64,000 nt of DNA, taken from positions 15,299-79,298 of the forward strand of contig JAFCFT010000002.1 of NCBI GenBank assembly GCA_017608505.1. The letters are read 5' to 3'. The notes below the pieces were generated by a model. That model ran no database searches, had not been told where the DNA came from, and was given only the letters and a program-made list of their open reading frames with translations. Made by a program: the position numbers and the translations under genes. Below, piece by piece: positions 4,838 to 53,453 of this stretch; the first letter of the stretch is position 1, and each line of letters begins with the position of its first letter. This DNA is from Candidatus Parvarchaeota archaeon (GTDB taxonomy: Archaea > Nanobdellota > Nanobdellia > WJKC01).

Positions 4838-5762
4838 ATTTTTTTCAATGTTATTAAGCGCTTTTTTGCTTGCTTACTTAAGTCCAAAAGTTGTTAATTA
4901 TGCGTCAGCCATTGCCAAAGCCTCAAAAATATCTCCCCTAATAATTGGAATGCTTGTTATAGGGATTGGAACTTCTATTCCAGAAATAAGCAATTCTTTA
5001 ATATCTTCTGTATTAGGGCACGGAGACATAAATGTTGGCGACACTATTGGGTCTTCAATTTCGCAGATAACTCTTGTTTTAGGCATATGCGTGCTAATAG
5101 ACGGCTTTACAAATATAAAAAGAGATGACATATTGGTTCTTGGTTTAAGCACTGTACTTGCTTCCGTATTGTGCGCTGTAGTTGTAGCTAAAAATGCAAT
5201 AACTCGTCTTGACGGTTTTTTGCTTGTAATTTCTTATTTTGCTATAATCACTGTTCTTAGAAATTACATTAAAAAAGGATATTTCCCGTTAGAAACTGAA
5301 GAAAGGGTTTTTGAGGCGAAAAAGAAGCTTTACGCATTTAAACTTATAATTACCACTTTAGGCGTTGTTTTTGGTTCTTATGTGCTTGTAAGTTCTGTTA
5401 TTTCGCTTTCTAGAACTCTTAATATTCCAGAGTTCATTATAAGCTTTGTTGCTGTTGGCATCAGCACGTCGCTTCCAGAAATAGTGATAGGCGTTTCAGC
5501 AGTAAGACAAAAAGAGTACGAGTTAGTCTTTGGGGATATATTTGGCAGCAACATTGTTGACACTACGCTTTCGCTTGGCTTTGGTCCCATAATAGCTCCT
5601 AATTATCTCTATGATAATGCGATTAGAGCAACAAGCTGCTACTTAATTCTTGTGACATTCATTGTCACACTAATTTTTGCTACAAGGCAAAGAGTTAGCA
5701 AGAAATGGGGTTTTCTACTTTTAGGTCTGTACTTAGCATCAATGCCCCTTCTTATTCAGTAA
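4827..5762 (+). CDS. Na+/Ca2+ exchanger family (CaCA/YrbG-like) membrane protein
   Basis: Two alpha-repeat motifs 'GTSIPEI' and 'GISTSLPEIV', and the internal duplicated membrane topology typical of CaCA. Confidence 0.7.
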   Translation: MIFEFFSMLLSAFLLAYLSPKVVNYASAIAKASKISPLIIGMLVIGIGTSIPEISNSLISSVLGHGDINVGDTIGSSISQITLVLGICVLIDGFTNIKRDDILVLGLSTVLASVLCAVVVAKNAITRLDGFLLVISYFAIITVLRNYIKKGYFPLETEERVFEAKKKLYAFKLIITTLGVVFGSYVLVSSVISLSRTLNIPEFIISFVAVGISTSLPEIVIGVSAVRQKEYELVFGDIFGSNIVDTTLSLGFGPIIAPNYLYDNAIRATSCYLILVTFIVTLIFATRQRVSKKWGFLLLGLYLASMPLLIQ

Positions 5763-5770
5763 TTTCCATC

Positions 5771-5800
5771 GAAGGGGTTTTAACCCCTTTCGAAACCCCC
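5771..5800. terminator. GC-rich palindromic hairpin between convergent genes (bidirectional terminator candidate)
   Basis: 'AAGGGGTTTTAACCCCTT' is self-complementary, followed by 'TCGAAACCCCCTTT'. It lies between the stop codons of the CaCA gene (+) and rps10 (-). Confidence 0.4.
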
Positions 5801-5814
5801 TTTAAAAATATGCT

Positions 5815-6123
5815 TTATTCAGTAATTTCCATTTCCATGTTTATACTTTTTGGGATTTGAATTCTCATAATAAGTCTTAATGCCCGCTCGTCCACACCCA
5901 AGTCTATTATTCTTTTGTGAATTCGCATTTCCCAAGTTTCGAACGTTTCGCGCCCCTGACCGCAAGGACTTCTTCTTGTAGGCACTCTTAGCTTTTTAGT
6001 TGGCAATGGAATAGGTCCTCTCATGTCCACTCCTGTCTTTTCAGCAATCTCTTTAATTTGATTGCAGATACTCAAGAGTGCTTCAGGTTCTGTGCTTGAT
6101 AGCTTTATCCTTGCTCTAGGCAT
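5815..6123 (-). CDS. rps10: 30S ribosomal protein S10 (uS10)
   Basis: '[13 protein letters not shown]...[41 protein letters not shown]' is a classical S10 sequence. Confidence 0.9.
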
Positions 6124-16761: not shown

Positions 16762-18547
16762 TATGCAGTTTTGGATATATGACGAGTGACTTTAACTCGT
16801 CCAACAGCAATTTGAAAGCATAACTCATTTCAATAAGAGTTATCTCGCTTCCTTCGCCGCATACAGGGCAAAGCCCTTTGTTTTTAAATTTGTTAAATAT
16901 TGCAATCATTCCGCACTTCTTGCATACAGGCATTACTGACTTGTCGCTGTCAAATCTTTCTTTTAAAAACAATGTAGCGCCGTGGCCTATAAGGCAGTCG
17001 CGCTCCATTTCTCCAAGTCTCAATCCTCCTTCTTTTGCCCTTCCTTCTGTAGGCTGTCTTGTAAGAAGTGCGAGAGGGCCTCTTGACCTTGACTGGATTT
17101 TTGAAGCAACCATGTACTTTAATTTCATGTAAAACATGTCTCCAATCATTATCCTGACTTTGTATTGCCTGCCTGTTCTTCCGTCATACATAGTTTCAGT
17201 CCCATTATCTTTAAAGCCTAATTTTAACAATTCTTTTCTTAAGTCCATTTCATTTTCATTGTCAAAAGTAGTGCCGTCTATGCATGTGCCTCTAAGCGCT
17301 GCCACTTTGCCTGCAAGACATTCTATTATCTGCGAGAACGTCATTCTTGGCGGCACGCTAAAAGGACTAAATATTATGTCAGGTATTATTCCTGAGGCAG
17401 TAAAGGGCATTGACTCTTGAGGCACTATCATGCCTATAACGCCTTTTTGCCCATACCTTGATGAGAATTTGTCTCCTATCTCAGGTATTCTTTGGTCTCT
17501 TATTTTGACTTTTACCATTTTGTTGCCTTCCTGAGATTCTGTTATCATGACAGTGTCAACAATTCCTTTTTCTTGCAATTTAATTGTTGTTGAAGTTTCG
17601 CGTCTTGCTTCAATTCCAACTTTAAATTCTTCAAGACCTGCAAGGAATCTTGGAGGGCTTGTTTTTCCGACTAAAACGTCTCCTGACTCAACTTCAGCTT
17701 CTGGATAAATTATGCCGTCATCTTCTAAATGAACATAAGCATCTTCAGTCCTATATCCTTTGACTTCTTTTTCAGGGATGCATATTAAATCTTTTATTCC
17801 TCCTGCATACTTTAGCTCCTCGCTTTTGTAAGGCCTAAAGTATGTGCTTCTAAACAAGCCTCTTTCAATGCTTGACTTGTTTATCACAATCGCGTCTTCA
17901 ATATTGTATCCGTCCCAAGTCATAATAGCAACAACTACGTTTGTGCCTATTGGATGAATATCATAATTCATTAAATCCCACATTATTGTGCCAACAAGCG
18001 GTTTTTGAACATAATGAAGTATATTGCTGTCAGTGTCATCTCTAATTAAATAATTGCTTGCGTAAATTCCAAGACCTTGCTTTAAAAGCTTGGCGCCATA
18101 AATTACCCTTGGCGCAGTATTGTGTTCTGCGTAAGGGACCATTGCTGCTTGGTTCCCAAAAATGCACAAAGGGCTTATTTCCAAGTGCGTGTGCGCTTCT
18201 GTAAGTTCGCTTTCATTCATTGCTATTTTTGCATCCTCTTCCTCGCTTGCATCCAAGTATTCTATGACTCCTTCTTTGACTAAGTCATTCCAAGATATCT
18301 CCCCATTTTTTAATTTCTTTATGTGCTCTTTTGTTAATTTTGGAATTCCTTTTTCAACAATTATTAACGGCCTTCTTGCCCTTCCTTTTTCAGTTGTAAT
18401 CTCAATGTTGTCAAGCTCTTCATCATACATTATATTCATTAAGTTTGTAATTTTTCCTTCCCTTCTTTCTTTTTTAATGTGTTTTATGAACCTTGCAGGA
18501 TTCTTAACAGTCCCTATGAATGTGCCATTAAAAAACACATCAGTCAT
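16745..18547 (-). CDS. rpoB1: DNA-directed RNA polymerase subunit B' (Rpo2C, C-terminal half of B)
   Basis: 600 aa with 'GQKGV', 'GEMERDCLIGHGA' and a C-terminal zinc ribbon 'CKKCG...CPVCG'. Confidence 0.9.
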   Translation of the reverse strand: MTDVFFNGTFIGTVKNPARFIKHIKKERREGKITNLMNIMYDEELDNIEITTEKGRARRPLIIVEKGIPKLTKEHIKKLKNGEISWNDLVKEGVIEYLDASEEEDAKIAMNESELTEAHTHLEISPLCIFGNQAAMVPYAEHNTAPRVIYGAKLLKQGLGIYASNYLIRDDTDSNILHYVQKPLVGTIMWDLMNYDIHPIGTNVVVAIMTWDGYNIEDAIVINKSSIERGLFRSTYFRPYKSEELKYAGGIKDLICIPEKEVKGYRTEDAYVHLEDDGIIYPEAEVESGDVLVGKTSPPRFLAGLEEFKVGIEARRETSTTIKLQEKGIVDTVMITESQEGNKMVKVKIRDQRIPEIGDKFSSRYGQKGVIGMIVPQESMPFTASGIIPDIIFSPFSVPPRMTFSQIIECLAGKVAALRGTCIDGTTFDNENEMDLRKELLKLGFKDNGTETMYDGRTGRQYKVRIMIGDMFYMKLKYMVASKIQSRSRGPLALLTRQPTEGRAKEGGLRLGEMERDCLIGHGATLFLKERFDSDKSVMPVCKKCGMIAIFNKFKNKGLCPVCGEGSEITLIEMSYAFKLLLDELKSLVIYPKLHIEPKS

Positions 18548-20058
18548 TTTTTATCAACCCCTATTTGTTCTAGTCCGCTATTTTTAAGCGCTTCTACAAT
18601 CTTTTCATTTTCTTCTTTAGGCACATTAGTGCTTATTTCGCAAGTTATCCCTAAATACTTTCTAAGACCTACTGGAGGTCCTTCTGGAGTTTCGTAAGCG
18701 CACAATTTTCCCCAATGCGTAGGATGTATGTCGCGCGCTTCAAAGTTTTCTCTTGATGATGTTAAACTTGAGACAACTCTTTTTAAGTGGCTTACAGTGT
18801 CAACAAAATTGCATCTTGATAAGTGCTGGCTTACTCCGTGCCTTCCGCCGACCCATTCTCCTGTAGCCAAATTGCTTTTAATTCTTGATGACAATAATTG
18901 GCTTCTTGTTATTGCCTGAAGACTTGGAAGCTTTCCTCTTTTTACAAGCCTTTCAAAATTATATTTCATGTCACCAACAAGTATTCTAAATGAAAATCTG
19001 AATAAGCTTTCCATTAAATCTCCGCACAGCCTCAGCCTTTTATTCATGTAATGGTCTTTGTCATCCTCTTTTATTATATTGTATGACAACTGAAGCAGTT
19101 TCCTAATGCATTTTGCCAGATAATAAGCTTTCAGCATTCTTGAAGACTCGTCGTGCCCTATGTGAGGGAACAAGAACTTGTCAATCATTGTCAATGCTTT
19201 GTTAATCATCTTCTCTTCTGTCTGCGTTGCGCCTAATTTCTTTCCAAGCGCTATCAATGCCTGCTTTTGGTTTTTTATTTCGGCAACTTTGTACAAATTA
19301 ATGTATATGTCGCTCATCATTCTTTCATTTGGCTGTATTGCAGAAACTATTTCTTTGTCATTGTCAAGACCTAGCGCCTTAAGCAAGAGCATTGCAGGCG
19401 CTTTATTGACTCTTGTGAACGTGACATTTATTAATCCTGCCCTGCTTTTTTGTATCAAGTGGGGAATCCTTAATTGATCATCTTCTGAAAATATTTTTAC
19501 AATATAAGGGTAAGGTCCTATTTTTTGCTCTTCTACAAAAATCCTGTTTGGCGCCAAGTCCTCTATTATTACAACAACCCTTTCTGTTCCATTTATTATG
19601 AAGTAGCCTCCTGGGTCCATAGGGTCTTCTCCATTATTAATTAGCTCTTCCCTGCTTAAGCCCTTTAAGTAGCACGGATCTGACTTTACCATTATCGGCA
19701 TATTTCCTATATGTATTACTTTTTTCTCGCCTTCTACGCCGTCTTTCTTGTAAAACATTTCAAGCATTATTGGGGCTTCATACGTTAAATCTCTAAGTCT
19801 TGCTTCTATTGGCAATATTGGCCTTTTTGTGCCGTCTGCTTCTCTTATAAGCGGCTTTTCAACCCACACCTTTCCAAATACTATCTCAAAATCTGAAACA
19901 TTTGGAGGAAGGATGTCTGGCGTTAACTTTCCAACTTCATCAACCACGACCTGCATTCTTTCATTTATAAATTTATTAAAAGACTCTATATTAAATTCTA
20001 CAATACTCTTCTCCCTAAAGTACGCTCTTAACAAATCTTTATGATTAATCAACCACAA
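18544..20058 (-). CDS. rpoB2: DNA-directed RNA polymerase subunit B'' (Rpo2N, N-terminal half of B)
   Basis: 504 aa, 'PIEARLRDLTYEAPI'. The ORF-track start is TTG at 20058; a start at the next TTG (20052) with the upstream 'GGAGGTG' Shine-Dalgarno-like run is equally possible. Confidence 0.9.
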   Translation of the reverse strand: MWLINHKDLLRAYFREKSIVEFNIESFNKFINERMQVVVDEVGKLTPDILPPNVSDFEIVFGKVWVEKPLIREADGTKRPILPIEARLRDLTYEAPIMLEMFYKKDGVEGEKKVIHIGNMPIMVKSDPCYLKGLSREELINNGEDPMDPGGYFIINGTERVVVIIEDLAPNRIFVEEQKIGPYPYIVKIFSEDDQLRIPHLIQKSRAGLINVTFTRVNKAPAMLLLKALGLDNDKEIVSAIQPNERMMSDIYINLYKVAEIKNQKQALIALGKKLGATQTEEKMINKALTMIDKFLFPHIGHDESSRMLKAYYLAKCIRKLLQLSYNIIKEDDKDHYMNKRLRLCGDLMESLFRFSFRILVGDMKYNFERLVKRGKLPSLQAITRSQLLSSRIKSNLATGEWVGGRHGVSQHLSRCNFVDTVSHLKRVVSSLTSSRENFEARDIHPTHWGKLCAYETPEGPPVGLRKYLGITCEISTNVPKEENEKIVEALKNSGLEQIGVDKK

Positions 20059-20160
20059 CCACCTCCAAGGAGGGGGACTTTCCCTCCCCCTCCTCTAGGC
20101 TACTTCTCCCCCTCCCTCGCATTACTATGTAGGTTTTATGATTAATCAACCACAACCACC
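20038..20160. repeat. 26-bp perfect direct repeat (20038-20063 and 20135-20160) flanking a 71-bp GC-rich hairpin-containing insert between rpoH and rpoB''
   Basis: 'TTTATGATTAATCAACCACAACCACC' occurs twice. One copy encodes the RpoH C-terminus and stop, the other the RpoB'' N-terminus. The insert contains 'GGAGGGGGACTTTCCCTCCCCCTCC'. Confidence 0.7.
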
Positions 20161-20432
20161 CTGTAATACTTTGCTTCGCCAGCAGTTGGGCTCTTTCTTG
20201 TGATTTCTATCACATCTCCGGGCTTTGCCTTAAGCAATTTGGCGCACGGGTCTTTTTTTGAAATTTTTGGCAACGATGCTTTTGTTATATTGTACTTTGA
20301 AAGCAAGTTTATTGTCTCCTCTTCATTAAGTATTCTATGATCAGGGACTATCTCATGGTCAAAAAGTATAAACTTCTTTTTTACTTCTTTAGCCCCTTCT
20401 TCCCCTTTTGATTGGTTTTTTTCCCCAGTCAT
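20142..20432 (-). CDS. rpoH: DNA-directed RNA polymerase subunit H (Rpo5)
   Basis: 96 aa, '[15 protein letters not shown]...[39 protein letters not shown]'. Confidence 0.8.
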
Positions 20433-20549
20433 GAATTAATTACCAACCGCGCGCGAATTATAATTAATTTCCTGATAATCTTAAATAAAACGCATTTTAT
20501 TTACTCAAGAAACTGTCTTCTCTTTTTAAATGTTTCGTTTTTTGCCCTT

Positions 20550-21020
20550 TTACCAAGGATTTTTCTGCAGTTTCAGCATAAATCCCAGCACATTAAACGC
20601 TTTGTAAATAAATGGTGCTGCCAGCATGATGCCTAAAACTTCAAAGGCATTGAATAAATCCCATGTTGCAATAATCACGCAAGCCACAAGAATTTCAGAA
20701 TCCCAAGGCTCAAATGATGCCCCTGGCTTTAAATTAATTTTTCTTTTAATAAAACTTGTCAGTAAGTCCCCTGCAACTACTCCAACTCCAGTTAAAAGCC
20801 CGTACTTAATGCTTCCAAGCACAAGATACCCTGATAGCAAACCAACACACATCATTGTTGCAACGCCTCTCCAAGTTTTATGAGAACCAAACACGCGTTT
20901 CCCTTTCCACTTTTTATTAAAATCCACAGGAGCATTCATTTTTGGAAAAAGCTTTGCACTAAGAACAGGGCTTAAGTTTGCAAGTATTAATGGAACTGCT
21001 TTTACAAACACGTCAATCAT
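20550..21020 (-). CDS. Small CTP-transferase-like membrane protein (CDP-archaeol synthase-like)
   Basis: 156 aa with 4-5 TM helices and 'HKTWRG', similar to the KTWEG motif of CdsA/CarS-type cytidylyltransferases. Confidence 0.4.
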   Translation of the reverse strand: MIDVFVKAVPLILANLSPVLSAKLFPKMNAPVDFNKKWKGKRVFGSHKTWRGVATMMCVGLLSGYLVLGSIKYGLLTGVGVVAGDLLTSFIKRKINLKPGASFEPWDSEILVACVIIATWDLFNAFEVLGIMLAAPFIYKAFNVLGFMLKLQKNPW

Positions 21021-26677: not shown

Positions 26678-29536
26678 TTAGGATAGCTTTATACCCATAT
26701 TTCTTGCTGTTAAATCAACTGCCATTCTATTGATATCTTCATTCATCGCCATGAATTTGCTGATTAAATTTGGGTTTTTGTCTAATAAGAAATCCATAAA
26801 TTTTTCTGTTAATCTTTTTAGAAGCCCTTTTTTAAATACCATTCCTAAATCTTTATCTTTGTTACCTTTAATCATTGTTGTAACAAATTCATCATGGGTT
26901 ACATTTTCAATATATTCTTCTATTAATCCTTTTTCATCATCAGATAATGATGATTCAAATCTTAAGTTAATTGCTTCAACAACTTCTTTAACAGTTACAT
27001 ATTCTATTTCTCTTTTTTTACCCGCACTAATTATTTCTTTTTCTTTTGGTTTTTCCTTTTTAACTTCTTTTATTTTATATTTAGTTACATAAATTTTTTC
27101 TAGTTCTTTATCAAGCATTCTAAGTTTACCAAAAGGGCTTAAATAATTAGCCATATAATACGAAAACCTAGCAAAGTTTCTTAAGTCTTTATCTCTGATT
27201 ACGAATAAATTGTTTAAGAAGTTAAATGTATTATTATACTTCACTAATAAGCCTCTGAATTCTCTTCTTTTCTTAACTTCATATTTATGCAATCTCTTTT
27301 CTATATTTTGCGCAATTTTTTCAAAATAGAGATTAGTTTCATTATTAAGTATCCCTATATTAAAATCGTCTACGTCTTTTTTAGTAAAAACATTCCAATT
27401 AATTAAATCAATATATATTTTACTTAGTTCTTTAGTGTCTAATCCTGTTCTATCAATAACTGTTTTTTTGTATCTTCTGAATGCTTTTATAATTTCTTTG
27501 TACGAGTTCGTGAAATCAATTGTTAATGTGTCCCTTTTGTTTGGGAATACTCTGTTTAATCTGCTTATAGTTTGCACAGCATTAATTCCTGAAACACTTT
27601 TATCAAGAAACATTGTGTGTAATAATGGTTGATTAAATCCATATTGAAACTTGTTGGCCACTATTAAAAATCTGTAATTTTTTTTCTTAAATTCATCCTC
27701 AATTTTTCCTTTTATTTTATTTAAGTTTGCTTCAGTATATACTTTATCATCACCTTTTTTTAATTTAATACTACCTGTAAACGCCACTAAAGTTTTGTAC
27801 TCTAATCCTTGGTCTTGTAATTCTTTGTCTAATATTAGTTTATACTTAACTGCTGCTTTGCGACTGCTAGTTACTATCATTGCTTTGGCATAATTATCTT
27901 TTATTGCATTCTTAGTATGTTCTTCAAATATTTTGATTATGATTTTCACTTTAGCCTTTATTATATTTTCATCCTCGTAAGCTTTGGCTTTAATTTTTTT
28001 AATAACTGGCAATGGAGGGTATTCTTTACCTTCTCCTATTTTTTCTGATAACTTGTATAGTGTTTCGTAAGGAATAATATTATCAGATACATTGAGTATT
28101 TTACCCTCTTTTTCTGCTTGATCCATACTATAAACATCAAAGGGTTTACCAAACATTTGTATTGTTTTATCACTTGGGGTTGCAGTTAATGCAATAAAAA
28201 CCAAGTTTGGAAATTTTCTCTTAACTAATTCTGCACTTAACTCGTCTTGGAAGTTTTCTTCATAAGGTTCAAAATAACCTAACATGTTTTTGTGTAGTTT
28301 ACCTGTTTGTGATCTGTGCGCTTCATCAATTATTATACAAATCTTTTTACCTTTCTGTTCTGTTAGTAATTCTTTTAACTTTGTGACTGAGAATTTGTGT
28401 ATGGTGCTTACCACTACTTTTTTATTTTTGTTTAATGCTGTTGCTAATTCTTTCGTTGTTTCAACATAGGCTACTAAACCTTTTTGTGTTTCAACGTTTC
28501 TTATTTCATTTCCTAATTGTGTGTTAAGATTAATCCTATCTGTCAGTATTACTATTGAATCAAACAAAGGTTTATTATCGTAATGTATGTGTCTTAGGAA
28601 TCTTTGGAGTATTGCTATTGTGTAACTTTTACCGCTTCCTGCACTATGTTGTATTAAGTATCTTAAATCTAGTTTCTTAGTTTTCGAATAATTCTTTAAT
28701 ATATCTTCTCTAATTTTATTTACTGTTCTTCTCTGATGATATCGTGGGAAGAAAAAAGTAGTAACTTCTCTTCCATCTGGAAGTTTTACTTTTATGGTAT
28801 GCAAGTAATGTTCTATTATTTCTATTAATGATTCTGGTGTTAGTATTTCATTATACAAATATTCTATATTATACTCATTCTCTACTTGCGGGTTAATTAA
28901 GTCTTTGTTAAACCATACGAAGTCTTCAACACTATTACTAATGAATTCAGTGGCTATCTTAACATTTTTAGTGTCTGCTGCGATATGTAGTATTGGTTTC
29001 TTAAATATGTTCAAGCTTTTATCCCTGTCATCAATGTATTGTATTACTGCGTCATCAACTACTTGACCAGTTAATGGATTCTTTAATTCTATTGTGATTA
29101 AGGCAAAACCATTTAGGAATAAAACAATGTCTATTGATTCCATTGTTTTTCTGAAACAGAATTGTCTAACGTAACTGAAAATGTTTGATTCATAACGTTT
29201 TAATGTTTCAGGATTATAACTCGTCTCGGGTTTAAAATAAATTAACCTAATTTTAATATCATTGATTGTTATTCCATCTCTTAAGACCTCAAATAATTTC
29301 TTTTTATCTAATTCTTTACTAATCACTTTCTTAACTTCTTTAAGCCACTTATTGCCAAAAAATGATTTTAATTCTTTAACTTCTTCTGGTTGGGTTCTGG
29401 TTAAGAACTCCATTAATATATTATCGTCGATGTTAATACTTAAATCGATGTCATCAGTAACCCGCTTGCGATAACCATGGGCTTCTAATCTTTCACAAAA
29501 ATGAGTCTCAAACTTCTCTTCTTTCGGACCAGTCAC
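26678..29536 (-). CDS. hsdR: Type I restriction enzyme R subunit (HsdR)
   Basis: 952 aa with SF2 motifs 'HSAGSGKS' and 'IIDEAHRSQ', and an N-terminal nuclease region. It overlaps hsdS by 4 nt. Confidence 0.85.
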   Translation of the reverse strand: MTGPKEEKFETHFCERLEAHGYRKRVTDDIDLSINIDDNILMEFLTRTQPEEVKELKSFFGNKWLKEVKKVISKELDKKKLFEVLRDGITINDIKIRLIYFKPETSYNPETLKRYESNIFSYVRQFCFRKTMESIDIVLFLNGFALITIELKNPLTGQVVDDAVIQYIDDRDKSLNIFKKPILHIAADTKNVKIATEFISNSVEDFVWFNKDLINPQVENEYNIEYLYNEILTPESLIEIIEHYLHTIKVKLPDGREVTTFFFPRYHQRRTVNKIREDILKNYSKTKKLDLRYLIQHSAGSGKSYTIAILQRFLRHIHYDNKPLFDSIVILTDRINLNTQLGNEIRNVETQKGLVAYVETTKELATALNKNKKVVVSTIHKFSVTKLKELLTEQKGKKICIIIDEAHRSQTGKLHKNMLGYFEPYEENFQDELSAELVKRKFPNLVFIALTATPSDKTIQMFGKPFDVYSMDQAEKEGKILNVSDNIIPYETLYKLSEKIGEGKEYPPLPVIKKIKAKAYEDENIIKAKVKIIIKIFEEHTKNAIKDNYAKAMIVTSSRKAAVKYKLILDKELQDQGLEYKTLVAFTGSIKLKKGDDKVYTEANLNKIKGKIEDEFKKKNYRFLIVANKFQYGFNQPLLHTMFLDKSVSGINAVQTISRLNRVFPNKRDTLTIDFTNSYKEIIKAFRRYKKTVIDRTGLDTKELSKIYIDLINWNVFTKKDVDDFNIGILNNETNLYFEKIAQNIEKRLHKYEVKKRREFRGLLVKYNNTFNFLNNLFVIRDKDLRNFARFSYYMANYLSPFGKLRMLDKELEKIYVTKYKIKEVKKEKPKEKEIISAGKKREIEYVTVKEVVEAINLRFESSLSDDEKGLIEEYIENVTHDEFVTTMIKGNKDKDLGMVFKKGLLKRLTEKFMDFLLDKNPNLISKFMAMNEDINRMAVDLTARNMGIKLS

Positions 29537-30843
29537 GCTACCACCTTCATTTTACCAGTAACACAATCATTAATTAAAACCCTCTTATATTCTTCTAACC
29601 TTTTGATTTCATCCTCAATGATATCTATAGCACTCTTTATTTTCTCAGTAAAAGAATCCAAAAAAGCAACAATAGCTTCTTGTTCTTCTTTGTCCGGTAA
29701 TGGAAAATAAAAATTAACAAACGTTTTTTGGTACAAATGAGAAATTGTTGAACCTGTCTTAATATATTCAATAAAATTATTAAAAAGTTCTGAATTAAGA
29801 ACCCAGAACATAAACTTTGGCACGTAAATATTATTTTCAGGTCTTATAACAAAAACACCACTATTAAGAGTGGCTTTTCCGTAAAAACCTTCAATAAATG
29901 CTACTTTTCCAATACTACCATCTTTTGTAACTAAAACATCTTCATTTTGAATTTGTATATATGGATCCTGTAAATATCTTTCTTCATCAACGTGATGACA
30001 GGTTTCCCAATTTATTTTACCATTTTCAAAATTGGTTCCAGTTATTAAATAAGGCCCTTCATCTCTATATTCCTTAGATGTTAATCCTTGCCAACCTATT
30101 CTTGATTTAACATAAGATGTTGTTTTTATTCTTTTAATTTTAAACCTTTTAGCAATATGATTTAGCCATTTTATTCCACTGTCTTTCATTTCAACATTAG
30201 GGTTTAATCCTTTAGTGACTGCTTGATTAATAACTATTTTCTCATACTCTTTCAGTAATTCAACTTGTTTACGCTTATTATTAATCACTTTATCTAACTT
30301 ACTGGTCTTATCATCCAAAAAAGAAGCAATAGCCTCTTGCTCGTCTTTTGGTGGGAAAGGTATTTTAAAATTCTTAACAATATTTTCATTAATATGTCCC
30401 TGGGCCCCTCCAATTGTTTTTTTTAAAAAATAATCTTTTGAATTTAGCAATATGTAAAATAAGAATCTTGGAATAAAAGAATTATTAGGATAAAGTGCTG
30501 TAACTGATTGGTTAGCTGCAGAATCAAATTTTAAATAAGCAACATTGGCTCTAGTGGCGCCAGTTAGAGCAATTAATACAGAATTCCTTGGAAATAATTT
30601 AGCTGAACTTTCACTTAAACCTAACTCAGTAATAAAAATATCTGCTTCATATAAATCACAATTTTGAATTTTACCTGATGGTAACCAAGGAATGTTTCCA
30701 CCCCAATATTCTGATTTGGCTGTTGATGGAGTCCCCCCACTCGAAGTATTTGCAAAATTTTTAATTTTTCTTAATCTCCAATGTTTTGGTAAAGACTCGA
30801 CATATTCATAATCCACACATTTATACTCCTGATAAGTTCTCAT
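29533..30843 (-). CDS. hsdS: Type I RM specificity subunit (HsdS), two TRDs
   Basis: Duplicated conserved spacers 'PFPPKDEQEAIASFLD' and 'FPLPDKEEQEAIVAFLD'. Confidence 0.85.
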   Translation of the reverse strand: MRTYQEYKCVDYEYVESLPKHWRLRKIKNFANTSSGGTPSTAKSEYWGGNIPWLPSGKIQNCDLYEADIFITELGLSESSAKLFPRNSVLIALTGATRANVAYLKFDSAANQSVTALYPNNSFIPRFLFYILLNSKDYFLKKTIGGAQGHINENIVKNFKIPFPPKDEQEAIASFLDDKTSKLDKVINNKRKQVELLKEYEKIVINQAVTKGLNPNVEMKDSGIKWLNHIAKRFKIKRIKTTSYVKSRIGWQGLTSKEYRDEGPYLITGTNFENGKINWETCHHVDEERYLQDPYIQIQNEDVLVTKDGSIGKVAFIEGFYGKATLNSGVFVIRPENNIYVPKFMFWVLNSELFNNFIEYIKTGSTISHLYQKTFVNFYFPLPDKEEQEAIVAFLDSFTEKIKSAIDIIEDEIKRLEEYKRVLINDCVTGKMKVVA

Positions 30844-31805
30844 GTTTCTTCACTCCTTGTTAATTCGAAGTCAAATTCTTGTAATTTTAAAGCACATTCA
30901 ATAATATAATTGATACAAAAATCTAAATCTTCCTTATTAAAGGTTATTTCTGTTGATGGCATATGAAAAATTGGCTCAGGAGAACCAATAGCCCATACTG
31001 GTTTAGGGATAATTAATGAAAACTTAATGAATTTTCTATAATCTAAGCCAAAAGCAAGAATCTTAACGGCTTTTTGCATAGACTCAATAGATTCCTTTAC
31101 TTTATCAATAAACTCAGATAATCTATCAACATCAAATACTTGATTTTCATTGTTTAGATTAGGAATAAAATTATTTCTTATATTAAAACTATTCAACCAA
31201 GTCATATCTTTTCCAAAGAAAAAAGGTGACTCTCCAAACCTTGTTCTTTTTGATGACTCATAATCCTTTAATAAAAACTCAAAAGCCAAGGAAAGAGCTT
31301 TAATAGATTCATTCTTATTTGAAGAGAATTCACTTTTAGCTTTCTCTAAATAACTTCTAACTTTACTATTAAAAACCAAATTTATAAGAGAGATATCCTT
31401 AACATCAAGGTTATAAACATTTTTACATAATTCTTCAAAAATATTATTTGCAATAATTCTAGATTCTTGAACATCTGTTTTACTTGAAAATATTCCATGA
31501 TGCTTTAAATTAACTCTTTTTCTTTTTAATTTATCTAAACTTGGTCTTGAACTAATTTCAACTTTTGGAGGATTATCATTTATCCAATCATTTATTTTAT
31601 CAAAATATTGCATAAAACTAAGATTATTTGAGTTTATGTCCTTATCTTCTAAGACTAATAAAAATGCTAGTTCAAGAGCATCATGATAATGTAAAAGTGC
31701 CACTGAAGATAACGGTTCTGGTTTTTTGGATTCTTCATTTCCTTTTTCAATTAAGAATTTAGCAAAAGCCAATCTTTTAAGTATAATTTCTCGAGTTAAT
31801 GACAT
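30840..31805 (-). CDS. Unknown protein embedded in the Type I RM operon between hsdM and hsdS (possible HEPN-like toxin/abortive-infection component)
   Basis: 321 aa, all-alpha in appearance, translationally coupled (4-nt overlaps) with hsdS. It has an Rx4H-like 'RVNLKHH' segment. No ATPase motifs. Confidence 0.35.
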   Translation of the reverse strand: MSLTREIILKRLAFAKFLIEKGNEESKKPEPLSSVALLHYHDALELAFLLVLEDKDINSNNLSFMQYFDKINDWINDNPPKVEISSRPSLDKLKRKRVNLKHHGIFSSKTDVQESRIIANNIFEELCKNVYNLDVKDISLINLVFNSKVRSYLEKAKSEFSSNKNESIKALSLAFEFLLKDYESSKRTRFGESPFFFGKDMTWLNSFNIRNNFIPNLNNENQVFDVDRLSEFIDKVKESIESMQKAVKILAFGLDYRKFIKFSLIIPKPVWAIGSPEPIFHMPSTEITFNKEDLDFCINYIIECALKLQEFDFELTRSEET

Positions 31806-31821
31806 TTTTAATCCTCCATAA

Positions 31822-33582
31822 TCATTTTATTAGCCCTAATTCTTTTAGCAGTTTTTTATTTTCTTCTTCTAAGTCTCTAAATTCTTTGATTACTTCTTCT
31901 TGCGACCTTAAAGGTTTATACTTATAAAAGTATTGAGTGAAATTAATCTCGTAACCAACAACCTGTTTCTTAATCTTATATGGTTTTTCAACTTCACGCT
32001 TTAAATATTCGTTAATATCTTCTTTTAGTGGGACATACTCAGCGTCATTAATCTTAACAATTTGAGTGACCTCCTTTCGTTCACCATTAACTTTTTTCAC
32101 AACAGTTTCTTTCTTAGGATTGCCGTTTTCATCAACATCAGTAAGTTCAAGAAATACCTTAGTATAACCAAAATCCTCATTATCAAAAATCTTGGAATTA
32201 TCAGACTCCTTAAATTCCTTATAAATCTCAAAAATCTTAACAATTTGGTCATCAGAGATATACTTACGCTTATTACCAAGACTCTTCTTCATAGGCTCAT
32301 AAAAATTAACAGCATTAATGAGTTGTACCTTACCCCTCCTTCTAGGTTCTTTCCTATTACGGATTATCCATCTGTACGTGGCTATACCTGTGTTATAAAA
32401 TAAATCAGTAGGTAAAGCAATAATTGCATCAATCAGATCATTCTCCAATAAATACTTCCTAAAATTACTTTCACCACTACCAGCATCCCCAGTGAATAAA
32501 GGACTGCCATTAAAAACAATAGCAATACCACTGTCCCCATCACTAGGATTCTTAAGTTTAGATAACATGTGCATTAAGAACAAAGTAGCCCCATCAGACA
32601 CGCGAGGAAGCATGTCCTTAGGGAAACGACCACTAGCATCATCAAGAATAGCTTTTTTATCCTTCTTCCAAGTAACACCGAAAGGAGGATTAGACAACAT
32701 GAAATCAAACTTAGCATTAGGAAACTTATCATTAGTTAATGTATTGCCAAATTTAATATTATCAGACTCTTCACCCTTAATTAACATATCAGAAGCGCCT
32801 ATCGCCCAAGTCTCAGGTTGCTTTTCCTGACCATAAACAATCACTTTAGCCTTAGGATTAACTTCTTTAAGAATAAATTCTTTAGCAATCACTAGCATAC
32901 CCCCAGTACCACATGCAGGGTCATAAATCTCTTTAATCTCACCATCCTTAATCTTAGAATCATTAATCAAAAGTTTAACCATTAATTTAATAACTTCACG
33001 AGGAGTAAAATGTTGTCCTGCTTCCTCACCAGTCTGCTCTGAAAAACGCCTAATTAACTCCTCAAAGATGTAACCCATCTTCTCGTTACTAATAACTTGG
33101 GGAGACAAGTTTAACTCAGAATACTGCTTTAATAATGGATACAACAATTTATCCTTCTCTAACTTATTTAACTCTTTGAAAAGACCAAAGTATTCAATAA
33201 TCATTTTAATATTATCTGTAAAACCATTCAAGTAACTCTTAAAATTCTCTTTAATCTCACTAGTTTTTTCAGCGCAAAGTTTTTCGAAAGTAAACTTAGA
33301 TTTATTATCAAATCCGAGAGAGGTAATTAATTTGTTATGAATAAACTTCCTCTTTTCCGCGTCATCCATTTTAATATTTTTAAGTTTTTTTTCAATTTCT
33401 TTCCTTTTTTCTTCTAAAACACACTCAATCCTTCTAAGAACAACAAAAGGCAATATAATGTCTTGATACTGATGTTGCTTATAAGTATCTCTTAATATTT
33501 CAGCAGATTGCCAGATAAAATTTACTTCAGCACTTATATTAATATGGTCTGCTTTCATATTATAAAACATAACATACACCAT
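31822..33582 (-). CDS. hsdM: Type I RM N6-adenine DNA methyltransferase (HsdM)
   Basis: 'DPACGTGGML' (motif I) and 'LSNPPFG' (motif IV), 586 aa. Confidence 0.9.
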   Translation of the reverse strand: MVYVMFYNMKADHINISAEVNFIWQSAEILRDTYKQHQYQDIILPFVVLRRIECVLEEKRKEIEKKLKNIKMDDAEKRKFIHNKLITSLGFDNKSKFTFEKLCAEKTSEIKENFKSYLNGFTDNIKMIIEYFGLFKELNKLEKDKLLYPLLKQYSELNLSPQVISNEKMGYIFEELIRRFSEQTGEEAGQHFTPREVIKLMVKLLINDSKIKDGEIKEIYDPACGTGGMLVIAKEFILKEVNPKAKVIVYGQEKQPETWAIGASDMLIKGEESDNIKFGNTLTNDKFPNAKFDFMLSNPPFGVTWKKDKKAILDDASGRFPKDMLPRVSDGATLFLMHMLSKLKNPSDGDSGIAIVFNGSPLFTGDAGSGESNFRKYLLENDLIDAIIALPTDLFYNTGIATYRWIIRNRKEPRRRGKVQLINAVNFYEPMKKSLGNKRKYISDDQIVKIFEIYKEFKESDNSKIFDNEDFGYTKVFLELTDVDENGNPKKETVVKKVNGERKEVTQIVKINDAEYVPLKEDINEYLKREVEKPYKIKKQVVGYEINFTQYFYKYKPLRSQEEVIKEFRDLEEENKKLLKELGLIK

Positions 33583-33602
33583 TAATATTTATTTTTATAT
33601 AA

Positions 33603-33821
33603 TTAACCATAAATAGTCCATGCTTCCTTTTTGAAACTTTTTTCAAACTCTTTAGTTCGAATTTCTTCAAATAGCATGTAAGACTCTAAAAAGACTTTCA
33701 TACATTTCTCACAAACAGGTATTCTACCATTTTTATTTTTTTTGTTACCTAAGAACTTATCTGTTTTAGACTTACAAAAGTGGCAATTGTACTTCTTTAT
33801 TCTTAACAAGTTCTTAATCAT
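33603..33821 (-). CDS. Small zinc-finger protein
   Basis: 72 aa, 'CHFCKS...CEKC'. Confidence 0.35.
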   Translation of the reverse strand: MIKNLLRIKKYNCHFCKSKTDKFLGNKKNKNGRIPVCEKCMKVFLESYMLFEEIRTKEFEKSFKKEAWTIYG

Positions 33822-33894
33822 TATATCACCTCCATTTTTCCTAAATAATAATGGACAATTAAAGTATTAAAATATTATATTAGAAATTACAAAA

Positions 33895-34602
33895 TTATTC
33901 TGTAATATTGAGTGCTACAAGTAATTTACCTGCTGGTTTTAAGATTACCCTGGTGTTCCTTCCTTCTCTTTCCATTTCAATTAAACCACGCCGCTTTAAA
34001 GATTTAAGACTAGCATTAATTTTTTGTGGTTTATGAATAAAAGGCAACTCACCATATCTATCCTTAAAATTTTCACAATATACCCTTCTAAAATAAGTAC
34101 AATTTTCTACTTCACCATTAAATGAATTAAGAATCTTAAGAATATTCCATTGTACATTAGTTAAATCTGTTGCTTTAGGAATTTTAAACATTGGCAATTC
34201 ATTTACCAAATCCTTAGTTTTAGCATCCTTTAATATACGTTTATCAAGAACATAATAACCTGTTGCATTAATTAAAATTATAGCAATACTAGCTGCGGCA
34301 GCCATAATATTGGTGCCCATGGTTATATTAAAATAAAAATTAATATTGGAATTGTTTTTTAATTCAATATCTGCAGTTTTTTTTACTTTTATAATTAAAT
34401 CAGTTAATTCAAATGGATTAATAGTAATTGTAGAAACAGAATCACAAATAGCTAATTTAATAATCTTTTCTGCTTCTTTAGAAACATTCTTAGTGCCTTC
34501 AGAATCAATAAGGTAAACTTTATCTATATCCTCGTAGTGCTTTAAACCAGTAATAATTGGTTCAATTCCGCTTTTTCCAACATTAATAAAATGGATATTC
34601 AT
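33895..34602 (-). CDS. CARF-domain plus winged-helix transcriptional regulator (Csa3-like)
   Basis: The N-terminal Rossmann-like 'IHFINVG...VYLIDSEG...NITMGTN' parallels the Csa3 CARF 'DLTMGMR' ligand loop. The C-terminal wHTH is 'LKSLKRRGLIEMEREGRNTRVILKPAG'. Confidence 0.5.
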   Translation of the reverse strand: MNIHFINVGKSGIEPIITGLKHYEDIDKVYLIDSEGTKNVSKEAEKIIKLAICDSVSTITINPFELTDLIIKVKKTADIELKNNSNINFYFNITMGTNIMAAAASIAIILINATGYYVLDKRILKDAKTKDLVNELPMFKIPKATDLTNVQWNILKILNSFNGEVENCTYFRRVYCENFKDRYGELPFIHKPQKINASLKSLKRRGLIEMEREGRNTRVILKPAGKLLVALNITE

Positions 34603-34647
34603 AATGTTAAAATTAAAAGTTGTAATATCTTAAAAAATATTGCTATA

Positions 34648-35334
34648 CTATAAATATTTAATCATTAAATCCAATAATTCATCGAAAGCGTATAAAGATA
34701 ACAAAAAAATATTAAAGATTACTAAAAACCCTCCAGGACTTTTTTTATTAGTTATAAGATCAGTACTTGAATATCGTTTTTTTATTGGATCGTGATGTTT
34801 ATCTCTTTCATCAGATAAAAAATCAAAAATAAAAAAAAATCTTGGATTTACTGCATCGTATTTTTTTAAAGTAGAAAATAAATTCTTATCCAATTTTACC
34901 CCACTCATTATTATTCCAGGATTCTGTAATCGCCCAACAGTCTCCTTATACATATCTTTGTATTTACAAAAAATAGTAAAATTCTTCGCATAAATAGACA
35001 TTCTGTCACCCTTTTCTTTAGGATCTATATCTATATTTAACTTGTTCAATATTACTTTGAAAACTCTTTTAAAAACAGCATCATTCAATGCACTGACAAT
35101 ATCAACAAAATAAGCAGAATTATCACTACTAATAATCCTTTTTATATCATTCTTTTGATCAATTAAATATTCTATCGCTGCTTCTAATTCTTTTTTTTGA
35201 ATAGAAGTTAACCAAGAAATTTTTTCAAGTTTTTTAATAATGTCCTCTTTAACAAAGTCAATATTATCCAATACACCTTTTATTGATTTTTTTATTTCTT
35301 TAAGACTACAGTCACGACTACTCATTAAAATCAC
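34648..35334 (-). CDS. hypothetical protein with a C-terminal transmembrane helix
   Basis: 228 aa with a hydrophobic C-terminal 'GGFLVIFNIFLLSLYAF'. It overlaps the downstream Type IIG gene by 4 nt. Confidence 0.35.
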   Translation of the reverse strand: MILMSSRDCSLKEIKKSIKGVLDNIDFVKEDIIKKLEKISWLTSIQKKELEAAIEYLIDQKNDIKRIISSDNSAYFVDIVSALNDAVFKRVFKVILNKLNIDIDPKEKGDRMSIYAKNFTIFCKYKDMYKETVGRLQNPGIIMSGVKLDKNLFSTLKKYDAVNPRFFFIFDFLSDERDKHHDPIKKRYSSTDLITNKKSPGGFLVIFNIFLLSLYAFDELLDLMIKYL

Positions 35335-38234: not shown

Positions 38235-38579
38235 TTACTTTTTATGAATACTCCAACTGAATTTTAATAGGCCTAAATTAACCTCAAAACCAAATGTATG
38301 TTTAAATTTTGGTTGATTTTCTACGATGTTAATACCTTTAGGTAAAATTCGTGTCACAAAAAATATTTGAGCTCCATTTATATTACCTATTGCTCCATAA
38401 CTCTTAAGAATGCCTAAATCATTAAGATAATTATATGCTAAATTAATTCTCTTTCCATTCCATTTTGTTTCATTAATCACATCTCGTGTTCCAACACTAC
38501 TTTTGCCTTTATTCACTAACTCGTTATAAAAGAAAAGTAACAATTCACCCGCATCTTTTTGAACTCCCATTTTCATCAC
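38235..38579 (-). CDS. hypothetical protein
   Basis: 114 aa ORF overlapping the next gene by 4 nt. Confidence 0.3.
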   Translation of the reverse strand: MMKMGVQKDAGELLLFFYNELVNKGKSSVGTRDVINETKWNGKRINLAYNYLNDLGILKSYGAIGNINGAQIFFVTRILPKGINIVENQPKFKHTFGFEVNLGLLKFSWSIHKK

Positions 38580-40051
38580 TTCAAATTTATATTATACACA
38601 AAGAGGTATGGATTAAAATATGCATCATAGCCTAATTCGAATACTAATTTTACAGACGTAACTGACATTGGAACATCTTTAAATAATACATAACCTTTCT
38701 TTGTAACACCAGGATAAATTTTAGAAAATATTGTATCTAATGTTCCACCGAAAGTACTTTCATACTGGTTTCTTTGGTTGTCTATAATTACCATGCCAGA
38801 TGGTGAAAAATAATCACTTTCACTCCCAATATTTTTAACTTCCATATCTACTCTAAAGTATTGTTTTTTATTACTCCATTTGTTATATAGATTAAAGAAA
38901 CCAGCTTTTGTTACAGTTACTTCAAAATTATCATTACTTATTTTTTTATTAACTATTATTGCATTTTTATTATATTCTTCCTCAGCCAATTGCTCATATG
39001 TGTATGTTTTTTTGTTTTTCAAATCGAAAATATAATCTCCAATAATTATTTTTGAGATATCTACATTTTTAGGAACGTTTTTAAAAGCCATATAACCAGT
39101 TTTTTTAGCTCCACTTTCAATCTCTCCTCCTTCAAACTTTGACCTATATGACCTTTCATATTGATTACTACTAGAATCAATCAATTTTGTATTATAAATA
39201 TAGAAAGAATTTGTTTGTTTTGCCTCAACTTCTAAATCGACTCTTAAAAGGTTTTCTGCAGATATAGAACTATAATCTGTAAAGAATCCATATTTAGTAA
39301 TTCTTATTTTAAAATTATCATCTTCTAATTCCAGTAATGTTTGTTTTGCATTTTTATTATATTCTTCCTCAGCCATTTGCGTAAGTTCTTCTTTTGTGTA
39401 AGTTGGTATCTGTACTACCGTATCTTCTATATGTAATTCTTTTCCATCTGAAGTTACAAAGGTAAGAACTGCCCTACCAAAAGAAGAAATGCCTTTTTGG
39501 ATCTCAGATATTGGTACCCTCCATTCATACGCTTTTCCAATATCTTGACCTGTAAACATAAATTGATAATCAACAAATTCCGATGCCTTTACATCAAATT
39601 CTTTATAATACAGGGAATTATTTAAATTATCAAATATTTCTACCTTCACATGTCCATCTCCAGGTGTGTTTTTCCCATATACATCTTCAAGTAAAAAATA
39701 AAATCTAATTATTTCTCCTTCTTTAACTGTTGCAAAGTAATTTATATTAACAGGCGAATATTTAGAAGCGGTTGTTTGGGATGTATGGGATATTTGTATG
39801 TTTTGTAGAATGTTGGTAGGCGAATATTTAGAAGCGGTTGTTTGGGATGTTTGTGTTTTTTCAGCTGGAATTCCAGTTTGACCTTGCTCTTGAACACAAC
39901 CACATATAAAAACAATTCCAACAATCAAAATTACAATTAATCTTGAATTCATGAATATTTGTTTTTCTATTTTGTTTACCATTTCATAAATTTTATAAAA
40001 TCTTTTTCTTTTAAAGCTTTTTATAATAACAACCCCAAAGGCGGATTGCAA
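38576..40051 (-). CDS. Secreted/surface protein with internal repeats (DUF4352-like Ig-fold repeats)
   Basis: N-terminal TM/signal 'LIVILIVGIVFICGC' with lipobox-like Cys. A duplicated 'SQTTASKYSP.NI' segment is encoded by a 34-bp DNA repeat at 39757/39820. A duplicated 'AEEEYNKNA...NDNF..T.TK.GFF' domain is also present. Confidence 0.45.
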   Translation of the reverse strand: MQSAFGVVIIKSFKRKRFYKIYEMVNKIEKQIFMNSRLIVILIVGIVFICGCVQEQGQTGIPAEKTQTSQTTASKYSPTNILQNIQISHTSQTTASKYSPVNINYFATVKEGEIIRFYFLLEDVYGKNTPGDGHVKVEIFDNLNNSLYYKEFDVKASEFVDYQFMFTGQDIGKAYEWRVPISEIQKGISSFGRAVLTFVTSDGKELHIEDTVVQIPTYTKEELTQMAEEEYNKNAKQTLLELEDDNFKIRITKYGFFTDYSSISAENLLRVDLEVEAKQTNSFYIYNTKLIDSSSNQYERSYRSKFEGGEIESGAKKTGYMAFKNVPKNVDISKIIIGDYIFDLKNKKTYTYEQLAEEEYNKNAIIVNKKISNDNFEVTVTKAGFFNLYNKWSNKKQYFRVDMEVKNIGSESDYFSPSGMVIIDNQRNQYESTFGGTLDTIFSKIYPGVTKKGYVLFKDVPMSVTSVKLVFELGYDAYFNPYLFVYNINLK

Positions 40052-46007: not shown

Positions 46008-46085
46008 AGGCTTTGGTATTGGTAAAGCACACCCCCGCTCGCTTCGCTCGCTGCCCCCTCAAGGGGGCTTTGTGCTCGCTAGCGC
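46008..46085. terminator. Complex GC-rich stem-loop between convergent genes
   Basis: 'AAAGCACACCCCCGCTCGC...GCCCCCTCAAGGGGGCTTTGTGCTCGC' has nested inverted repeats (GCCCCCT/AGGGGGC; AAAGCACA/TGTGCTTT). Confidence 0.35.
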
Positions 46086-46093
46086 TCGCCACT

Positions 46094-51784: not shown

Positions 51785-51866
51785 AACCTATCACCATTAC
51801 ACTTCATGTATTATCCTGAAGAAGTATTTAAGGTTGGGGTGGTGGGCGTTGCCACCAACCCTCCCT

Positions 51867-51878
51867 ACGCCCGGGCCG
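51867..51878. repeat. att-like core, proximal copy (3' end of tRNA-Asp)
   Basis: Identical to 26386-26397. Confidence 0.5.
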
Positions 51879-51942
51879 GGATTTGAACCCGGGTCCTCGG
51901 ATCGACAGTCCGAGATCCTAGGCCAGACTAGACTACCCGGGC
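51868..51942 (-). tRNA. tRNA-Asp (GUC), intron-less
   Basis: Minus strand 'GCCCGGG TA GTCT AGTCTGGCCTA GGAT C TCGGA CTGTCGA TCCGA GGAC CCGGG TTCAAAT CCCGG CCCGGGC G'. The 7-bp acceptor, anticodon loop CUGUCGA and T-loop TTCAAAT are all present. Confidence 0.85.
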
Positions 51943-52027
51943 ATTTTGGTTTCATTATATGCTTAGGATTTTTAAACTTTATCTTGCTGATGGAAAAACA
52001 AAAGTTTTTAAAACAAGTTTTTAAAAT

Positions 52028-53231: not shown

Positions 53232-53453
53232 TCCCGCCGCCCGGATTTTCACCCTAAGACCTTACCTCCCTTAAGAGGGGGTGGGTAGGCCCTAGGGAGG
53301 GGGAAGCTTCCCCCTCTCTGGGGCTTGAACCGGGAACCTCACGGTTGCTGCTCAACTGCTGTTGGTCCAATACTAATTTGTATTGAACTACAGCCGTGCG
53401 TTGTAGGTAAATTATTCAAATAATTTACTCTCTACCAGTTGAGCTACGGCGGG
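53232..53453 (-). tRNA. tRNA-Tyr (GUA) gene with three putative introns (~24/25, 37/38 and 59/60), ~222 nt
   Basis: Proposed exons: 'CCCGCCG TA GCTC AACTGGTA GAG' | 'C G CACGG CTGTAG' | 'A CCGTG AGGTT CCCGG TTCAAG' | 'T CCGGG CGGCGGG A'. They assemble into a 73-nt cloverleaf with perfect D, anticodon, T and acceptor stems. Inserted segments have strong hairpins (GTAAATTATT/AATAATTTAC; GGGGGAAGCTTCCCCC). Confidence 0.6.

Follow-up and report, generated by a model that had tools for sequence, protein, structure and literature searches.

The genes rpoH and rpoB'' lie next to each other on the minus strand of the 64,000-nucleotide stretch of a Candidatus Parvarchaeota genome analyzed here (contig JAFCFT010000002.1, positions 15,299 to 79,298; hereafter the window, whose own numbering is used throughout). 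The first of these (20142..20432) codes for a 96-aa protein of the Rpb5 C-terminal domain family, whose homologues carry the Pfam domain PF01191, and the second (18544..20052) for the N-terminal half of a split RNA polymerase subunit B. Between the two genes, an earlier note made from the sequence alone had described a 26-bp perfect direct repeat flanking a GC-rich hairpin insert of 71 bp, and both features are real. The repeat, TTTATGATTAATCAACCACAACCACC on the plus strand, stands at 20038-20063 and 20135-20160, with 26 of 26 positions identical and the two starts 97 bp apart; the insert (20064-20134, here termed E1) has a GC content of 58% against about 36% in the surrounding sequence. Even with three mismatches allowed, the 26-mer has exactly two copies in the window (none expected from shuffles), and perfect close repeats of 14 nt or more are nearly absent from shuffled windows. 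Read in the sense of the mRNA, rpoH (...YYRVVVVD*) ends inside the upstream repeat copy (20135..20160, minus strand), which comprises the last 16 coding nucleotides of the gene, its TAA stop and 7 nt beyond, and rpoB'' begins inside the downstream copy (20038..20063, minus strand), which holds its ribosome-binding region and first five codons. Neither gene needs an excision for its reading frame to be intact.

In the mRNA sense, E1 consists of an AT-rich leader ACCTACATAGTAATGCG, a first G-run (GAGGGAGGGGGAG), a spacer, the hairpin AGGAGGGGGA-GGGAAAG-TCCCCCTCCT and a final TGGA. The G/C stem-loop (20068..20094, minus strand) contains 10 Watson-Crick pairs, one G.U pair and a 7-nt loop; its arms AGGAGGGGGA/TCCCCCTCCT, at 20068-20077 and 20085-20094, are 100% complementary over 10 bp, and GGAGGGGGACTTTCCCTCCCCCTCC occupies 20069-20093. 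Two alternative G-runs in E1 are able to pair with its single C-run. When folded as RNA, E1 alone is predicted to reach -26.9 kcal/mol with an 11-bp stem, and the whole repeat-E1-repeat unit -52.3 kcal/mol (z = -5.8), the latter partly because the G/U-rich repeat pairs with its own second copy. An inverted-repeat scan of E1 and its flanks recovered only the internal stem and a 10-bp perfect palindrome inside the direct repeat, and the termini of the insert (ACCTACAT... and ...CCTTGGA) are not complementary; E1 thus has no terminal inverted repeats. Searches of the window and of 1.9 Mb of other loci with the 25-nt hairpin core (up to 3 mismatches), the 12-nt C-run piece (up to 1 mismatch) and the whole of E1 (blastn-short) revealed no second copy. 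Rfam matched only tRNA-Asp in the entire window at the gathering threshold, and gave nothing with an E-value of 1 or less in 19850-20350. Despite its alternative G-runs, E1 shows no evident sensor of the kind an attenuator would have. No terminator-like site of the bacterial type was detected in 19800-20600, and no T-run follows the E1 stem on the mRNA strand; archaeal termination follows rules that differ from these bacterial-type criteria. Two readings of the arrangement were considered and rejected. Translational bypassing of the T4 gene 60 or byp type does not apply, as the second repeat copy, read in the rpoH frame, meets the same stop and yields no fusion or altered product. A CRISPR-like repeat-spacer-repeat unit does not apply either, the 'repeat' being rpoH coding sequence present in two copies only.

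The rpoB'' gene almost certainly starts at the second TTG of its frame (20052..20050, minus strand), judging from sequence comparison, so that the protein would begin (M)INHKDLL; the N-terminus MWLINH proposed in the earlier note is unlikely. RpoB'' orthologues begin (M)INHKDLL or (M)INYKDLL, outgroups starting with ATG align at this TTG, and a 502-aa database protein identical to the window RpoB'' (P0001) starts there. A Shine-Dalgarno (SD)-like GGAGGTG (20066..20060, minus strand) lies 7 nt upstream, and it is the agreement of the relatives, of P0001 and of this spacing on which the assignment rests. That the insert supplies this SD-like run, as had been suggested, is correct in one part: the match grows from GGTG to GGAGGTG at the junction, but the run straddles the boundary, with only GGA coming from the insert and GGTG from the repeat. 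SD-like sequences precede many genes of this organism, and the rpoB'' match is the joint longest in the window.

Comparison with relatives establishes how this arrangement arose. Five of them hold an uninterrupted 8-nt overlap of the rpoH stop and the rpoB'' start (NTGNNTAA), which upholds the proposal that the repeat copies are a duplicated ancestral overlap. The overlap reads ATGAGTAA in loci L011 and L262, ATGCGTAA in L012 and ATGGTTAA in L263, which share 66-69% RpoB'' identity with the window. In L014, with about 80% identity over the N-terminal 141 residues, it reads TTGATTAA, which is exactly the predicted empty site; here the gene junction (...GTCATTGATTAATCACAAG, with the 8-nt overlap) lies in the sequence ...GTTGTTGTCATTGATTAATCACAAGGAC, equal to the window repeat unit in single copy. 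A further relative known from protein data (P0123) has a 14-nt gap between the two genes, and none of the relatives compared carries the same spacer without a duplication. Scans of metagenome proteins for close relatives, and of viral contigs with an RpoB'' profile, returned no matches. Removal of one repeat copy and the insert from the window sequence restores the ancestral overlap exactly. As the relatives are uninterrupted and L014 is the exact empty site, the 71-bp sequence is an insertion with a 26-bp target duplication, which opened a conserved 8-nt overlap and damaged neither gene: upstream, the duplicated bases restore a complete rpoH 3' end, and downstream they supply rpoB'' with a complete ribosome-binding region and start.

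This is not a solitary event. The closest genome to that of the window is a 'Ca. Parvarchaeota' metagenome-assembled genome (MAG; JAUWZX01), with 84% identity in RpoB'' and 67% in RpoH. At its rpoH/rpoB'' junction (L001 3234-3350, JAUWZX010000002.1) a perfect 32-bp repeat, AGCAAAATATTACAGAGTGGTGGTCACTGATT (32/32 identical), surrounds a 53-bp insert with a G5/C5 hairpin (E4), which does not align with E1. In this sister MAG, the TTG start is the product of a 4-nt GATT duplication. That the repeat in the window is due to chance or to misassembly is hardly credible. The window does come from a metagenome assembly; however, no 26-mer repeat is expected by chance, both reading frames are kept exact, and an independently assembled MAG has a like architecture at the orthologous junction in a sequence of its own.

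A second site in the window shows the same organization, at the end of the minus-strand gene for ribosomal protein S10, where it faces a convergent gene for a Na/Ca-exchanger. One copy of a perfect 18-bp repeat (5815..5832, minus strand) comprises the last 15 nt and the stop of S10 (ATGGAAATTACTGAATAA in the S10 sense); the other (5752..5769) contains, on the plus strand, the stop and last codons of the exchanger gene. The 45-bp insert between them (E3, 5770..5814, minus strand) has a G4/C4 hairpin and an additional G5 run. In its absence, S10 and the exchanger gene would share 11 nt, TTATTCAGTAA. The orthologous junction of the sister MAG (L255 2798-2891, JAUWZX010000002.1) has a repeat identical at 20 of 22 positions around a 50-bp insert with an AT-rich hairpin (E6), and the S10 junctions examined in more distant relatives have no insert. 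We scanned every end of an open reading frame (ORF) in the window and about 36 kb of related loci (about 27 kb of it from the sister MAG) for a second occurrence of its final 18 nt (stop included), allowing up to 3 mismatches and a distance of no more than 170 nt downstream. Only four cases emerged, namely the rpoH and S10 ends in both genomes, against a null rate of 0.3% per position, and 1.9 Mb of unrelated loci, with 3938 ORF ends, added just two incidental tandem-repeat cases. Separately, the intergenic DNA upstream of a radical-SAM/SPASM gene in the sister MAG (L013 2581-2671) contains a 43-nt tandem repeat (spacing 48, 93% identical). The four inserts are all non-coding, start 0-7 nt past the stop of the co-oriented gene and follow a common plan: after an AT-rich leader come a pair of alternative 5' arms and a single 3' arm, with the hairpin abutting the downstream repeat. 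Their flanking duplications measure 26, 18, 32 and about 22 bp, and the stop regions have a loose YTGAWTAA motif in common. The same kind of event has therefore taken place at the S10 end of this genome and at both sites of the sister genome.

The repeats also carry information on the age of these events. Three of the four pairs are perfect within their own genome, and the species differ at many of the same positions: GTT GTG GTT GAT in the window corresponds to GTG GTC ACT GAT in the sister, and in either genome both repeat copies have the genome's own form. About 50 of the repeat positions are free of coding constraint in one copy, and the three perfect pairs show no difference at any of them. 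Hence, the last duplication or homogenization must be much younger than the species split. Moreover, the identity of the RpoB'' N-termini is 80.1% between the window and L014, 78.7% between the window and the sister, and 76.6% between the sister and L014. L014, with its empty site, is thus no more distant from the window than the occupied sister, so that the history of the rpoH site requires a minimum of two events, with a dynamic of gain and loss.

One way to account for this pattern, which we regard as possible though unlikely, is that the inserts are ancestral hairpin modules. These would have been gained once, before the window and sister lineages split, and kept by selection through RNA 3'-end stabilization, processing or the uncoupling of translation, with the repeats homogenized by gene conversion or slipped-strand correction between copies 45-71 bp apart; L014 would have lost its insert by precise repeat-mediated deletion. 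The same gene ends, and no others, are occupied in both species; the right boundary of the S10 repeat is identical (the end of the stop) and the left differs by one ATGGAA unit only; the presence of species-specific synonymous differences in both copies of each genome is a concerted pattern; and the plan common to the four inserts would follow from common ancestry. However, the boundaries at the rpoH site differ on both sides, the repeat extending from -16 to +9 relative to the stop codon in the window and from -31 to about +1 in the sister, and conversion shrinks repeats and cannot extend them into non-homologous sequence. Further, the inserts are unalignable between the species, the rpoH insert is absent in two lineages as close as the sister MAG, and the lack of any difference at the unconstrained repeat positions sits poorly with an ancient gain. 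As far as the boundaries are a guide, those at the rpoH site favor independent gains, and the nearly coincident ones at S10 are compatible with one ancestral gain followed by conversion.

We lean, by a modest balance of probability, towards E1 being a secondary insertion of a hairpin element into the ancestral overlap (TTGATTAA), akin to mitochondrial GC clusters or to repetitive extragenic palindromic (REP) elements, and accompanied by a long and variable target duplication. Its recurrence points to an undescribed, site-preferring insertion process. By analogy with the REP elements and GC clusters of AT-rich genomes, the agent would be a small hairpin element without terminal inverted repeats; it might prefer stop regions of the YTGAWTAA type, and could be turned over by precise deletion between its flanking repeats. 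The suggestion in the earlier note of a miniature mobile element with target-site duplication is in part borne out by the like repeat-flanked hairpins at the S10 end of the window and at both sister sites, and in part fails for want of the usual hallmarks. It is the absence of these hallmarks, together with other observations, that weighs against an insertion element. The four inserts have neither terminal inverted repeats nor conserved termini, each occurs only once in the sequence searched (the 64 kb of the window and about 27 kb from the sister MAG), and no transposase, reverse transcriptase or Cas1 is coded among the 30 window ORFs scanned. Classical transposases leave fixed, short duplications, and those seen here vary from 18 to 32 bp. 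The occupation of the same two sites in two species, with an identical right boundary at S10, could mean that ancestral inserts were homogenized by conversion. Finally, the stability of the isolated inserts relative to dinucleotide shuffles is modest (z-scores of -0.1 to -2.4), and the effect of the hairpin on the RNA is one predicted from structure models.

Among known systems, the GC clusters of yeast mitochondria (GC42; PMC4478555) come close to E1. They are non-coding GC-rich hairpins of about 40-70 nt in a strongly AT-rich genome, are flanked by direct repeats, show presence/absence turnover in close relatives, and encode no enzyme, with their mechanism being unknown (PMC4478555). E1 matches them in being a 58% GC insert in a context of about 36%, with an 11-bp stem, a flanking repeat and relatives with empty sites. 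In contrast, the clusters have flanking repeats of 2-3 nt (AG, ACT) and many near-identical copies (PMC4478555), whereas the inserts in these archaeal hosts have 18-32 bp duplications and no identical copies in 64 kb, and E6 is AT-rich. MITEs (miniature inverted-repeat transposable elements) and the palindromes of the REP and bacterial interspersed mosaic element (BIME) type, including the Correia and Rickettsia palindromic elements, are likewise small, non-autonomous structured inserts at gene ends and in intergenic regions, which can change translation signals or the stability of transcripts and are tolerated in the vicinity of essential genes (PMC10969869). However, a MITE is bounded by terminal inverted repeats, duplicates a short target of fixed length and has a cognate insertion sequence (IS), none of which was found, in the sequence available, for the present inserts with their duplications of 26, 18, 32 and about 22 bp; REPs, for their part, come without target duplication and depend on the REP-associated tyrosine transposase (RAYT). 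Long and variable direct repeats (8-514 bp) are generated by the IS1549/IS1634 elements, a family reported preferentially in Euryarchaeota (PMC2266710), and this is the only prokaryotic transposition system with such duplications among those compared. The length of the duplications agrees with this system, but its members measure 1.5-2 kb and have inverted repeats and a DDE transposase; E1 is a non-coding sequence of 71 bp without inverted repeats, the inserts as a group span 45-71 bp, and no such transposase gene was found among the 30 ORFs scanned.

A different comparison is with the introns of archaeal tRNA genes. In the window we identified an unannotated tRNA-Tyr(GUA) gene (53232..53453, minus strand), missed by ARAGORN and Rfam, with three introns: at about 24/25 (29 nt), at 37/38 (42 nt) and at 59/60 in the T-loop (78 nt, 53246-53323). 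Once spliced in silico, the tRNA folds into a perfect cloverleaf of 73 nt with C1-G72 and A73. There are four G4-loop-C4 hairpins in the 64 kb, of which three are those of E1, E3 and the third intron (53299-53314). The motif AGGGGG-N14-GGAGGGGGA-N4/7-TCCCCCTC is matched in the window by E1 and this intron only, with none expected, the two being in opposite orientations with respect to transcription. Their alignment scores 29 against 12.3 +/- 2.2 for mononucleotide shuffles. Nevertheless, when compared with 126 pattern-matched unrelated metagenome sequences, the intron ranks only 33 of 127 in similarity to E1, and blastn-short does not link the two; the idea of homology was therefore dropped. 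E1 and the intron have a common architecture, with sequence homology not demonstrated. Among the matches listed, several AT-rich metagenome contigs also have E1-type motifs within multi-intron tRNA genes. On six such contigs (L212, L156, L254, L203, L222 and L146) a conserved ...CCACCGCACG-AGGGGGTGGGGCAGAACACACGGGGAGGGGGA-loop-TCCCCCTC-CGCAGTG... lies antisense inside the multi-intron tRNA genes, and in L182 a similar hairpin stands directly past a tRNA 3' end. Collection scans with the hairpin motif gave, among the matches listed, mostly unrelated GC-rich hairpins, including phage terminator-like sites. Another repeat family, ...GCGACTTATCGCGATC-AGGGGGAGGGTAATAGGGAGGGGGA-loop-TCCCCCTCCCT, has at least 15 copies on two contigs of about 1 Mb each (Ga0272442_10000001 and _10000002; L140-L199), each unit being preceded by a GGGGATGCTCGTCCATCCCC hairpin.

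The E1-type motif in an intron 33 kb away bears on the view that the inserts are by-products of repair or replication. According to this view, which we consider rather improbable, a fork stall or break at the palindromic, stop-rich junction (TGATTAATCA) is followed by a template switch to an ectopic GC-rich hairpin donor, and synthesis then resumes upstream of the point of exit, giving a templated insertion with a duplication of arbitrary length. It would accommodate the variable duplications, the inserts without defined ends or inverted repeats, the perfect 10-bp palindrome in the target and the two occurrences of the motif where none is expected. On the other hand, no high-identity donor was found, the resemblance of E1 to the intron being as unexceptional as just described; the S10 targets are without a comparable palindrome; and the occupation of exactly two sites in two species would presuppose a strong local fragility.

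The presence of spliced tRNA introns in this lineage likewise bears on whether the insert plus one repeat copy (97 nt) might be excised from the mRNA by the tRNA splicing endonuclease and a ligase, as an archaeal bulge-helix-bulge (BHB) intron, with the overlap being thereby restored. Identical repeats can form a symmetric BHB if the repeat has a 4-nt palindrome between complementary triplets. With a strict criterion (hBHBh': two 3-nt bulges with a 4-bp helix between them), the search recovers introns 2 and 3 of the tRNA-Tyr as a positive control, this three-intron gene being a clear sign that the lineage splices non-canonical introns, and it finds exactly one motif on the mRNA strand of E1 and one at E3, with intron lengths of 97 and 63 that equal the respective repeat periods. 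However, the pairs of the E1 motif are all G.U (GGTT against GGTT), the sister inserts E4 and E6 have no in-phase motif, and an in-phase motif arises, per strand, in 6-11% of the duplications simulated at randomly chosen positions of the window. Moreover, splicing is unneeded, because both reading frames are intact. We hence reject BHB splicing as a general explanation, and consider it very improbable.

The tRNA introns offer a further parallel at the level of DNA. An intron 'transposition' among archaeal tRNA genes has been described (Fujishima et al. 2010, as summarized in PMC4090602), intron gain through the integration of mobile elements has been proposed (PMC3293823), and the mechanism of spread of archaeal tRNA introns is unknown, though thought to act on DNA (PMC4090602). 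Like E1, these introns are short structured sequences that reach new sites by an unknown DNA-level route, and the T-loop BHB intron is alike in architecture. In contrast to them, E1 lies between protein genes, in the opposite orientation, without a convincing BHB, and with a long flanking duplication, a feature unreported for tRNA introns. It is conceivable, if doubtful, that both belong to a class of archaeal mini-insertion elements not described before, i.e. GC-cluster-like hairpin modules of 45-80 nt that enter stop regions and tRNA loops at the DNA level with 18-32 bp duplications. Were this so, an insertion into a tRNA gene would produce a non-canonical BHB intron, providing a DNA-level mechanism for tRNA intron transposition, and one into overlapping gene ends would resolve the overlap and rewire translational coupling.

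Certain other features of the window deserve mention. A GC-rich nested palindrome of about 70 bp (46020-46090; ...CACCCCCGCTCGCTTCGCTCGCTGCCCCCTCAAGGGGGCTTTGTGCTCGCTAGCGCTCGC...) lies between convergent ORFs without a flanking repeat; its two C-runs and one G-run mirror the plan of E1. In the region 50615-51943, the gene for a tyrosine integrase (PF00589) adjoins the tRNA-Asp gene (51867-51943), with a PD-(D/E)XK nuclease, a STAND/AAA ATPase and TFIIB-repeat fragments upstream of it; the region is probably an integrated element. A low-GC island (26678-37397; 25-31% GC) codes for a type I restriction-modification system (HsdR, HsdS and HsdM) and a second methylase/specificity fusion. A near-perfect, tandem-like 44-nt repeat with a spacing of 66 (39752-39861), inside the ORF for a DUF4352 protein (38576..40051), is probably a coding repeat.

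If E1 is indeed a secondary hairpin insertion into the ancestral overlap, its consequences would bear on expression. To judge from the sequence around the start, termination-coupled reinitiation at the overlap may have given way to independent, SD-led initiation through the GGAGGTG at the junction. The rpoH-rpoB'' intercistronic RNA is now predicted to contain a stable stem-loop, which could act as a 3' stabilizer or as a barrier to processing.

In essential operons, a stop/start overlap is generally taken to be frozen. The rpoH-rpoB'' overlap has been opened cleanly, by means of a long duplication that rebuilds both gene ends. For the B subunit of RNA polymerase, this may have meant the replacement of termination-coupled reinitiation by SD-led initiation behind a stable hairpin. 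The recurrence of these inserts implies either a site-preferring insertion with a long, variable target duplication, which to our knowledge is not known for such tiny archaeal elements, or an unusually efficient concerted evolution of close repeats. Should the inserts and the T-loop intron really be linked, the spread of non-canonical archaeal tRNA introns would have a DNA-level route that can be tested at this locus, and the repeat-flanked copies would represent its first footprints.

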